Part shown: positions 31,603-32,362 of the stretch, piece after piece
Layout of the letters: each line of letters begins with the position of its first letter
Position numbering within the stretch: position 1 is the first letter of the stretch
Assembly: GCA_965215015.1 (NCBI GenBank)
Contig: OZ244042.1
Span: 4,864,001 to 4,928,000 of the forward strand
Reading direction: 5' to 3'
DNA: 64,000 bases
From: Candidatus Poribacteria bacterium
Lineage (GTDB): Bacteria; Poribacteria; WGA-4E; PCPOR2b
The notes under the pieces: generated by a model
The model's input: only the letters and a program-made list of their open reading frames with translations
Told to the model about the DNA's origin: nothing
The model's database searches: none
Program-made: the position numbers and the translations under genes

Positions 31603-32347
31603 GTAAGTATAGGTAGATTCCTCACGGAATTTTCCCTACTTCCAAACCGTGCGTGCGACTTTCACCGCACACGGCTTTCACCGTCAGTATACTGATTATC
31701 ATTGTAAACAGGTAAAGAGTTCGTAGGCAGACTAAGCTCTGGCAAATACCCTCAATGATAATCTCTGCCCTGCTTGCTTTTGATTCATGTCAACTAATAG
31801 GAAGGAGTTGTCATGGCAAAATATGGTTGACGCGCATCTGTCCTTAATTGCTTATGAATCAATTTCTGCATTCTGACTTGGACATGCTTGGGGATAATAC
31901 CCTACCTGTCCGCCTCTCCCGTATCTTCTCATGGGAATGAGATGACTTAGGGACTATCTTGTTCTCGCAATATGCACTTCACGAATGATTTAGGTGCTGA
32001 CTATACCCCGAAGGCGTTTGACTTACACGCAGCGTTAATCATGAGAACACTGCCTTACCTTACTTTTTTAGGCACAGGCGGGTCATAGAAGGGGTATTCA
32101 AGGCCTTCCCACGTAGATTCACCTGTTCGGAGATAACGAGGCTTGCATCAGTTCAACTTTCGTTTCACCCTGTCACTCTAACCCAACGTTCCCATTTCAA
32201 GGGTCTACCTTCCCTTTGAGGGATGCGCTGTTTCCCACTGCTTCCCACCCCGCCGTTTCCAGCGACGCAGTTGTGGTAAGGTTTATAGTGGTAAGTTCAC
32301 CAAGCTGGAATTGAACCCGCATTGCACATTGTTACACAAGATCGCAC
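31603..32347 (-). ncRNA. ORF-less group II intron (IIB-like), 745 nt, inserted right after the pepF start codon
   Basis: 5' GUGCG at 32347; 34-nt domain V AAGCCGUGUGCGGUGAAAGUCGCACGCACGGUUU (31644-31677); domain VI with bulged A 8 nt from the terminal AC; EBS1 loop CAUGAUU (32037-32043) complementary to the 5' exon end AAUCAUG. Confidence 0.93.
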
Positions 32348-32362
32348 CATGATTATCTCCTT
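32348..32362 (-). promoter_or_regulatory. Shine-Dalgarno plus ATG of pepF (5' exon / intron binding site)
   Basis: Minus strand reads aaggagataatcATG, immediately followed by intron GTGCG. Confidence 0.85.

Follow-up and report, generated by a model that had tools for sequence, protein, structure and literature searches.

The window analysed here, a stretch of 64,000 nt of contig OZ244042.1 (assembly GCA_965215015.1) from the sponge symbiont Candidatus Poribacteria bacterium, carries on its minus strand a group II intron of 745 nt that has no open reading frame (ORF) and separates, with no base to spare on either side, the start codon from codon 2 of a gene for an M3-family oligoendopeptidase (Table 1). 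Read on the minus strand, the locus is aaggagataatcATG up to the 5' junction, GTGCGAT...CCTATACTTAC for the intron and AGTAGTGAAAAT beyond the 3' junction. The source genome is denoted G000, the genomes of relatives by other G numbers, loci by L numbers and public sequencing runs by X numbers. A preliminary description of the window had proposed the anatomy of the intron (745 nt, a 34-nt domain V, a bulged A at −8), a loop within it, CAUGAUU, that reads the exon end AAUCAUG with the start codon, an in-frame stop and a lone TTG start on the unspliced RNA, and the lack of a reverse transcriptase (RT) or maturase ORF in the window, and each of these points was borne out.

The termini of the intron, GTGCG at 32347-32343 and AC at 31604-31603, follow the GUGYG/AY rule, and the Rfam model of group II domain V/VI, RF00029, matches positions 31679-31603 of the minus strand from end to end (model 1-77 of 77) with 64 bits and an E-value of 2.9e-10, the gathering score being 40. 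At a relaxed threshold, RF02012 (group-II-D1D4-7) aligned over its full model length to 32304-32154 with 31.8 bits (E 1e-4), slightly short of the 34 bits set as gathering score. Domain I has its basal stem from intron nucleotide 6 and its first hairpin at nucleotide 28, and a protein-level search of the 195-nt domain IV found no remnant of an RT. Group IIB introns pair an exon-binding site, EBS3, with an intron-binding site, IBS3, at the first base of the 3' exon, and have their branch-point A 7-8 nt from the 3' end; both features are present, as a candidate EBS3 pairing and as the A at −8, and on these sequence features 32347..31603 is confirmed as a complete ORF-less group II intron of IIB type. 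A promoter and terminator scan returned 7 promoter-like sites against 5.0 expected, an uninformative result.

With the exons joined, the peptidase has 596 codons, the same length as in all 19 relatives, and it is the sole Peptidase_M3 gene in the G000 genome. It scores 626.7 bits against TIGR02290, above the cut-off and with the profile beginning at residue 10, and contains the Peptidase_M3 and Peptidase_M3_N domains. Against the pepF equivalog TIGR00181 it reaches 335.8, under the cut-off of 490.55, so that 'oligoendopeptidase F' or 'PepF' is an approximate name.

The preliminary description had also suggested comparing the gene in relatives, and this comparison yielded intron-less alleles throughout. 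The gene is uninterrupted in 19/19 Poribacteria loci returned for the peptidase; 4 further loci come from distant non-Poribacteria and fall outside the 19 inspected for the intron. In the relatives a Shine-Dalgarno (SD) sequence (GAGGAG, TAGGAG or TGAGGA), a spacer and a GTG start codon (TTG in one) continue directly into codon 2, with AGC or AGT followed by ACT GAA...NGLPTWDLSD. These alleles set both borders of the intron and place the insert precisely between start codon and codon 2, and removal of the intron restores the N-terminus found in every Poribacteria relative. Since the orthologous site is empty in all 19, the insertion is species-specific.

The insertion is not an assembly artefact, because contigs from public runs of four studies bridge both junctions (X2, X6, X8 and, at low depth, X5). 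The X2 contig has 0 differences; the X6 contig (2019 study) has 7 differences and 1 gap over 31687-32407; and X8, a sponge metagenome, gave two contigs, the first over 31300-32241 (33 differences, 2 gaps) and the second over 32215-32426. The intron-bearing allele also occurs in a strain about 3.5% diverged. A single contig skips the region (from 31597 to 32534, with 68 other letters between), but it differs at 43 of 295 positions and, being only about 85% identical, is assigned to another species with an intron-less arrangement. In the samples of the four studies, no allele of this species other than the intron-bearing one was seen.

Table 1. Features of the intron and of the peptidase gene that it interrupts, in window coordinates.
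Feature	Position	Strand	Basis
IBS2, the SD sequence GGAGAT of the peptidase gene	32355..32360	-	complementary to EBS2 ATCTCC
IBS1, AATCATG, end of the SD-start spacer plus ATG (32350-32348)	32348..32354	-	complementary to EBS1 loop CATGATT
ATG start codon	32348..32350	-	sequence
Frame from ATG on unspliced RNA, 17 codons + TGA, MVRSCVTMCNAGSIPAW	32297..32350	-	translation
ORF-less group II intron, 745 nt, 5' GTGCG to CTTAC 3'	31603..32347	-	sequence, Rfam, intron-less alleles
Domain I	31956..32342	-	RNAalifold consensus mapped to window
EBS2 ATCTCC, resembling an anti-SD sequence	32129..32134	-	complementarity, covariation in sister introns
EBS1 CATGATT, loop of the 8-bp hairpin 32053-32029 (gcagtgtt/aacgctgc)	32037..32043	-	complementarity, covariation
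Candidate EBS3 (T); partner IBS3 is A at 31602, first 3'-exon base	32003	-	family column
Domain II, hairpin with CCUAAG/UACGG motif, presumably tetraloop-receptor-like	31917..31953	-	consensus fold
Domain III	31880..31911	-	consensus fold
Domain IV, ORF-less, where relatives hold an RT gene	31683..31877	-	consensus fold, relatives' loci
Domain V, 34 nt, AGC triad, AC bulge, GAAA loop	31644..31677	-	RF00029
Domain VI, bulged branch-point A at 31610 (−8)	31605..31641	-	RF00029, sequence
3' exon, codon 2 to stop, M3-family oligoendopeptidase, 595 amino acids + Met	29815..31602	-	profile matches
Internal TTG (Leu13), sole possible peptidase start on unspliced RNA, no good SD before it	31564..31566	-	frame scan

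Exon recognition and fold of the intron

The intron is complementary to the 5' exon over 13 contiguous Watson-Crick pairs (7 + 6), which take in the SD sequence, the spacer and the AUG, and to one base of the 3' exon, 14 bases in all. These pairings covary within the family. EBS1/IBS1 is CATGATT/AATCATG here, and CTAGCA/TGCTAG and CGCACTT/AAGTGCG in sister introns; EBS2/IBS2 is ATCTCC/GGAGAT here, and TTAGG/CCTAA, TTGGG/CCCAA, AGATTG/CAATCT and AGTTTG/CAAACT in sisters. At the EBS3 column there is a pair with the first base of the 3' exon in 24 of the 29 introns whose 3' exon is defined, two of them as U-A and the others as A-U. The resemblance of EBS2 to an anti-SD sequence follows from the 16S rRNA tail of G000, which reads ...CACCTCCTTT (the tail is also given as CACCUCCUUU). 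The pairings of EBS2 with the SD sequence and of EBS3 are new relative to the preliminary description. Literature searches returned no description of an EBS2 that pairs with an SD sequence, and the supplementary intron lists of PMC8919778 and PMC2882425 may hold similar cases. The intron-less sites of relatives, for example GGAGCACATCGTG, differ at 4 positions from GGAGATAATCATG in G000, which suggests either that the exon changed after insertion or that the intron entered an allele outside those sampled.

An alignment of 18 family introns (A1) gave a six-domain RNAalifold consensus of 175 pairs. Standard pairs occupy 97.9% of the cells of these pairs, as compared with 87.9% in shuffles (0/500 as high) and 36-42% when the partners are slid, and changes on both sides are seen at 86/175 pairs, as compared with 11-17 for slid partners, the test favouring the fold in that the consensus was drawn from the alignment on which it was tested. 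The G000 intron retains 158 of the 175 pairs: 117 agree with the consensus of the other introns, 8 have one side changed and 33 have both. Its ribozyme keeps all sequence hallmarks and most helices.

Related introns and their insertion sites

A search of 40 relatives gave intron matches in 25 genomes, G000 included. The full intron is single-copy in G000, which otherwise contains only decayed remnants, and 23 full-length ORF-less copies of about 711-765 nt, with 65.5-69% identity to the G000 intron, are found in seven other genomes. No closer relative was found in the 40 relatives or in the 29 genomes of the family (best full-length identity 69%), and two pattern scans of metagenome contigs for relatives of the G000 intron gave 0 matches. 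Other family introns hold ORFs of 1.7-1.8 kb with RVT_N, RVT_1, GIIM and HNH domains, and the best solved relative of these intron-encoded proteins (IEPs) is PDB chain 6me0_C ('Maturase reverse transcriptase', E 1.2e-91), which we take to be part of the Thermosynechococcus elongatus intron ribonucleoprotein. On these similarities the G000 intron belongs to a family in Poribacteria whose ORF-less members, of about 740 nt, derive from introns that encode an RT. A full-text literature search found no description of group II introns in Poribacteria, and a sizeable intron family is thus documented in this group.

The G000 genome is a single 5.94-Mb contig, 98% complete; any further replicon would lie outside it. 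It has 0 hits to PF00078, 0 hits to PF08388 and 0 hits in a protein search for IEPs, the window being likewise without an RT or maturase; tblastn with ORFs from seven relatives' intron loci (four of RT type, three of these Pfam-confirmed) gave a best E-value of 0.091, and 0.11 for an RT-type query. An IEP match is present in 16 of the 29 family genomes, and none was found in G015, G017 and G018, where intron copies are present. The earlier suggestion of a family is right, in that ORF-less introns are multi-copy in sister genomes beside RT-encoding kin, but G000, with its one copy and its decayed remnants, has no RT to mobilise the intron.

Two further observations concern mobility. G005 has six near-identical ORF-less introns of 741-745 nt at TAACCTAAGTTGCTAG-type sites (L007, L026-L030), and its IEP search returned just a 76-residue fragment with a stop, which points to recent proliferation without a visible driver RT. 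In G000, a second exact GGAGATAATCATG lies at another gene start (G000:C1:3555035-3555047, plus strand), where it is followed by GATCAGGCC; it is intron-free, which fits an intron no longer able to move.

Among the 24 full-length ORF-less copies, the G000 peptidase copy is the only one followed by a long open frame. The other 23 have at most 106 open codons after them and occupy non-coding contexts, at targets that recur, TAACCYAAGTTGCTAG and CTACAAxCTGAAGTGCG among them. Insertions at ribosome-binding sites are nevertheless found elsewhere in the family. A 35-nt remnant of a sister intron in G000 (GTGCA..., 89% identical; L006 2229-2278, equal to C1:4711229-4711278) directly follows AAAGGAGAAACCGTG, which in G016 is the SD sequence and GTG start of an intron-less Y1 (IS200-like) transposase gene (L122 598-1072; one in-frame TAG). 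The transposase gene has GC hairpins that resemble repetitive extragenic palindromes; the remnant joins the C-terminal part of this gene at a shared GGTTC and is read as the product of a later deletion. In G014 (G014:C5:2205114-2207137; L068, L081, L097, L123) a related intron lies in the SD-start spacer of a short-chain dehydrogenase gene, after ATAAGGAGATAGAAT and 1 nt upstream of the ATG (T ATG), and has an IS3-family (rve) element inside its own domain I; ten other inspected loci of the dehydrogenase gene (nine other genomes, G000 included) have no intron. In G022 a related intron stands between AAAGGAGAAGATT and the ATG of an oxidoreductase-like gene whose frame has a TAG at codon 18. Another G022 copy, L041, after AAGGAGATGTTA, was considered as a gene-start insertion and rejected, with just 20 open codons after it and an EBS1 mismatch. 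An SD-like four-mer is present at −16 to −5 in 10 of 19 distinct 5'-exon types, as compared with 10.4% of random windows, the 19 types not being independent in that related introns inherit EBS2. Several family members have landed in ribosome-binding sites, and most others are in non-coding repeats.

Probable splicing of the intron and expression of the peptidase

We propose that a non-autonomous IIB-type intron of a Poribacteria-specific family inserted in sense orientation, exactly after the start codon of the peptidase, and that it would still splice, alone or with some host factor, the full-length peptidase being translated solely from mRNA that has been spliced. Before splicing, the SD sequence and the AUG would be buried in the EBS2 and EBS1 helices, or ribosomes would read 17 codons into domain I and then stop; ribosome and ribozyme would compete for the same SD sequence and AUG. 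On unspliced RNA the frame of the peptidase is broken by a TAG that lies upstream of the 3' splice site at a distance of 12 codons. The N-terminal tryptic peptide from residue 2, SSENTNGLPTWDLSDLYDGIDDSR, can be encoded by the spliced mRNA only. We consider it probable, by no means assured, that the intron splices without a maturase and that full-length peptidase comes only from ligated exons. Splicing appears the most likely outcome given that the catalytic hallmarks are intact, that the host gene is intact, single-copy and under purifying selection and that this is the only allele in four studies, and it would be maturase-independent since the genome encodes no RT or maturase. It is then a reasonable inference that the intron gates expression of the peptidase, as the preliminary description had put it, though translation may also begin at the internal TTG.

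Several observations weigh against this proposal. Bacterial group II introns are commonly said to need their own IEP for splicing in vivo (PMC3919590), and bacterial ORF-less introns are nearly always found alongside a related IEP, C.te.I1 of Clostridium tetani being the sole exception named in PMC4424553. Two of the sister insertions at ribosome-binding sites are dead, namely the G014 dehydrogenase copy, split by its IS3 element, and the G000 Y1 copy, of which 35 nt are left. The G000 intron has non-standard bases at 17 of the 175 consensus pairs as compared with 0-5 in multi-copy sisters. By inspection at least 5 of the 17 are artefacts of the alignment or of its register (all 8 bp of the EBS1 stem gcagtgtt/aacgctgc are in fact paired, and at columns 72-75/110-113 the helix CCUU/AAGG is replaced by CCAC/GUGG), but genuine decay may lie behind some of the others, for instance a G-A in hairpin 28-44. 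The peptidase gene is intact, single-copy and under strong purifying selection, with dN/dS (the ratio of nonsynonymous to synonymous rates) against relatives of 0.034-0.11 and a median among relatives of 0.045, but the gene of the nearest relative is at a dS of at least 0.58, which makes the ratio blind to a recent loss of function.

The main competitor, which we hold to be unlikely, is that the insertion is dead, that nothing splices without a maturase and that the peptidase is not made, or is made from the TTG at 31566 without its first 12 residues; the gene would then look intact owing only to a recent event or a recent loss of the RT. The lack of an RT or maturase in the genome, the non-standard pairs and the decayed or IS-disrupted copies at other gene starts all speak for it, and with TIGR02290 beginning at residue 10, a start at Leu13 would cost little of the conserved core. 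The TTG, however, has no convincing SD sequence. Moreover, a dead insertion does not sit easily with catalytic hallmarks that are all intact and 33 compensatory pair changes, nor with the perfect 13 + 1 pairing of EBS and IBS at a place where the ancestral-type site of relatives has 4 differences, which suggests that exon and intron were kept matched. The peptidase is single-copy and conserved in 19/19 relatives at a dN/dS of about 0.05, and the interrupted allele is the sole one of the species in four studies, including the strain about 3.5% diverged.

Splicing could also depend on an RT or maturase encoded outside the assembly, on a plasmid, a phage or in a co-resident related symbiont, as for the introns of T. 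elongatus and Trichodesmium. Related IEPs of the RT-X-En type (RT, domain X, endonuclease) in 16 of the 29 family genomes are compatible with this, and the ORF-less family keeps a conserved domain IV, the domain that binds the IEP in other introns. We nevertheless regard such a helper as improbable: the 5.94-Mb contig, 98% complete, has no hit, a protein from another cell cannot act on G000 RNA and the other perfect target site of the genome has no intron in it. No more credit is given to a domesticated switch, in which the ribozyme was co-opted and its splicing is regulated by Mg2+, temperature or growth state. The location would indeed make translation strictly dependent on splicing, with EBS2 and EBS1 occluding the SD sequence and AUG, and in a small number of bacterial cases the expression of a host gene is modulated by splicing (PMC12584367). 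The arrangement is, however, limited to a single species, with the orthologous site intron-free in 19/19 relatives, there is no extra domain or ligand-binding element beyond the common structure of the family, and 23 of the 24 full-length ORF-less copies are in non-coding contexts, like ordinary selfish copies. The preliminary description had spoken of a domesticated ribozyme and of a conditional switch; the species-specific insertion tells against the former, and nothing in the sequence points to a sensor for the latter. The intron behaves like a stranded selfish element tolerated by its host, and not like a demonstrably domesticated regulator.

Each separate feature of the locus has clear precedents. 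In T. elongatus, ORF-less TeI3 introns proliferate with the driver IEP of TeI4 introns (Mohr et al. 2010, PMC2882425). These are likewise IIB-type, with compact derivatives that arose by deletion of the domain IV ORF and are multi-copy beside RT-X-En relatives, with retargeted EBS and with some copies in IS200-family elements, and the Poribacteria IEPs share with them the 6me0_C match given above. Unlike G000, T. elongatus has the driver IEPs in the same genome, and its copies are mostly intergenic, whereas the G000 copy splits the start codon from codon 2 with EBS2 on the SD sequence. In Trichodesmium erythraeum dnaN, ORF-less introns are served by the maturase of a related RT-encoding intron in the same genome (PMC12584367), and G000 differs in having no such intron. 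Insertion within or next to the initiation codon of a conserved host gene is known from a proteobacterial IIB1 lineage at start and stop codons that includes Avi.groEL and EcKTE56.groEL (Michel et al. 2007, per PMC12584367) and resembles the G000 intron in being IIB-type; those introns have a 5'-subterminal insertion of 300-700 nt (subdomain Ia) at domain I's base, as well as an RT ORF (PMC12584367), while the G000 intron, 745 nt in total and in Poribacteria, has neither. The ORF-less status alone is not rare, since a 2022 survey counted 888 IEP-less among 13,041 introns (PMC8919778). The closest case for maturase independence is C.te.I1, described as the first ORF-less intron in an IEP-less genome shown to splice (PMC3919590), which shares with the G000 intron the lack of any IEP gene in a bacterial genome. 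C.te.I1 lies between ORFs for surface-layer proteins, with four alternative D5/6 units and an unusual structure, whereas the G000 element, which probably splices, is one canonical intron within a single gene.

If the intron splices, it would be the second natural maturase-independent case in a bacterium, and one inside a conserved single-copy gene. With its EBS covering the SD sequence and the start codon, it would also offer a compact natural system for the competition between ribosome binding and ribozyme folding. A wider reading, which we put forward as a possibility and rather doubt, joins these elements: a clade specialised for ribosome-binding sites, with EBS2 as a mimic of the anti-SD sequence (AUCUCC, ACUCC, CCUU; 16S tail CACCUCCUUU), would have landed repeatedly between SD and codon 2 (the peptidase and Y1 transposase genes of G000, the dehydrogenase gene of G014 and the oxidoreductase-like gene of G022), and in its maturase-independent peptidase copy the same 13 bases would be contested by ribozyme and ribosome, which would turn splicing into an obligatory gate, coupled to translation, for a conserved single-copy gene. 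If so, just one earlier case of a bacterial intron that splices in an IEP-less genome would be known. The locus also bears on how group II introns colonise translation start signals, which is called unknown for the proteobacterial start/stop-codon lineage in PMC12584367.

Repeats and rearranged copies

Directly upstream of the peptidase SD sequence, at 32361-32505 on the minus strand, is a short interspersed repeat ending in ...caacagttgcaaactagcaccattggttattaa. It has 107 BLAST matches in G000, contig depth over it rises 4- to 14-fold and several copies stand just upstream of the SD sequence and ATG of other genes; relatives do not have it at the peptidase locus. The repeat was considered as the true homing site of the intron and rejected: it has more than 100 copies and ends in ...cattggttattaa before GGAGAT, and the other copies continue into unrelated sequence.

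In L006, at a distance of 4.5 kb downstream of the Y1 remnant, RF00029 matches an orphan domain V/VI with 46.7 bits at 6769-6853 (G000:C1:4715769-4715853), where domains I-IV are not recognisable. Between remnant and orphan is an ORF of 1057 amino acids for an arylsulfotransferase-like protein with a tail of the type IX secretion system type, the 5' region of which is tandemly duplicated (about 2650-3060 and 3030-3440). A fragment of the hydantoinase B N-terminus is duplicated at about 2400-2470, the gene itself being at about 7070. A match to the Vibrio antisense RNA V_AS9 at 981-1085 is below the Rfam threshold (38.5 bits against 50) and probably due to chance.

Two copies in other genomes are rearranged or may be so. 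In L009 (G016:C40) 16 nt in the 5' half of domain V are duplicated in tandem (A1 columns 722-737), with CGGTGAAAGCCGTGTG present twice. In L039 (G022:C1:4703368-4704057) the end of the 5' exon and the 3' end of the intron share ...TATCCAAAACGTT, which leaves the 3' boundary ambiguous, and this may be a rearranged or recombined copy.

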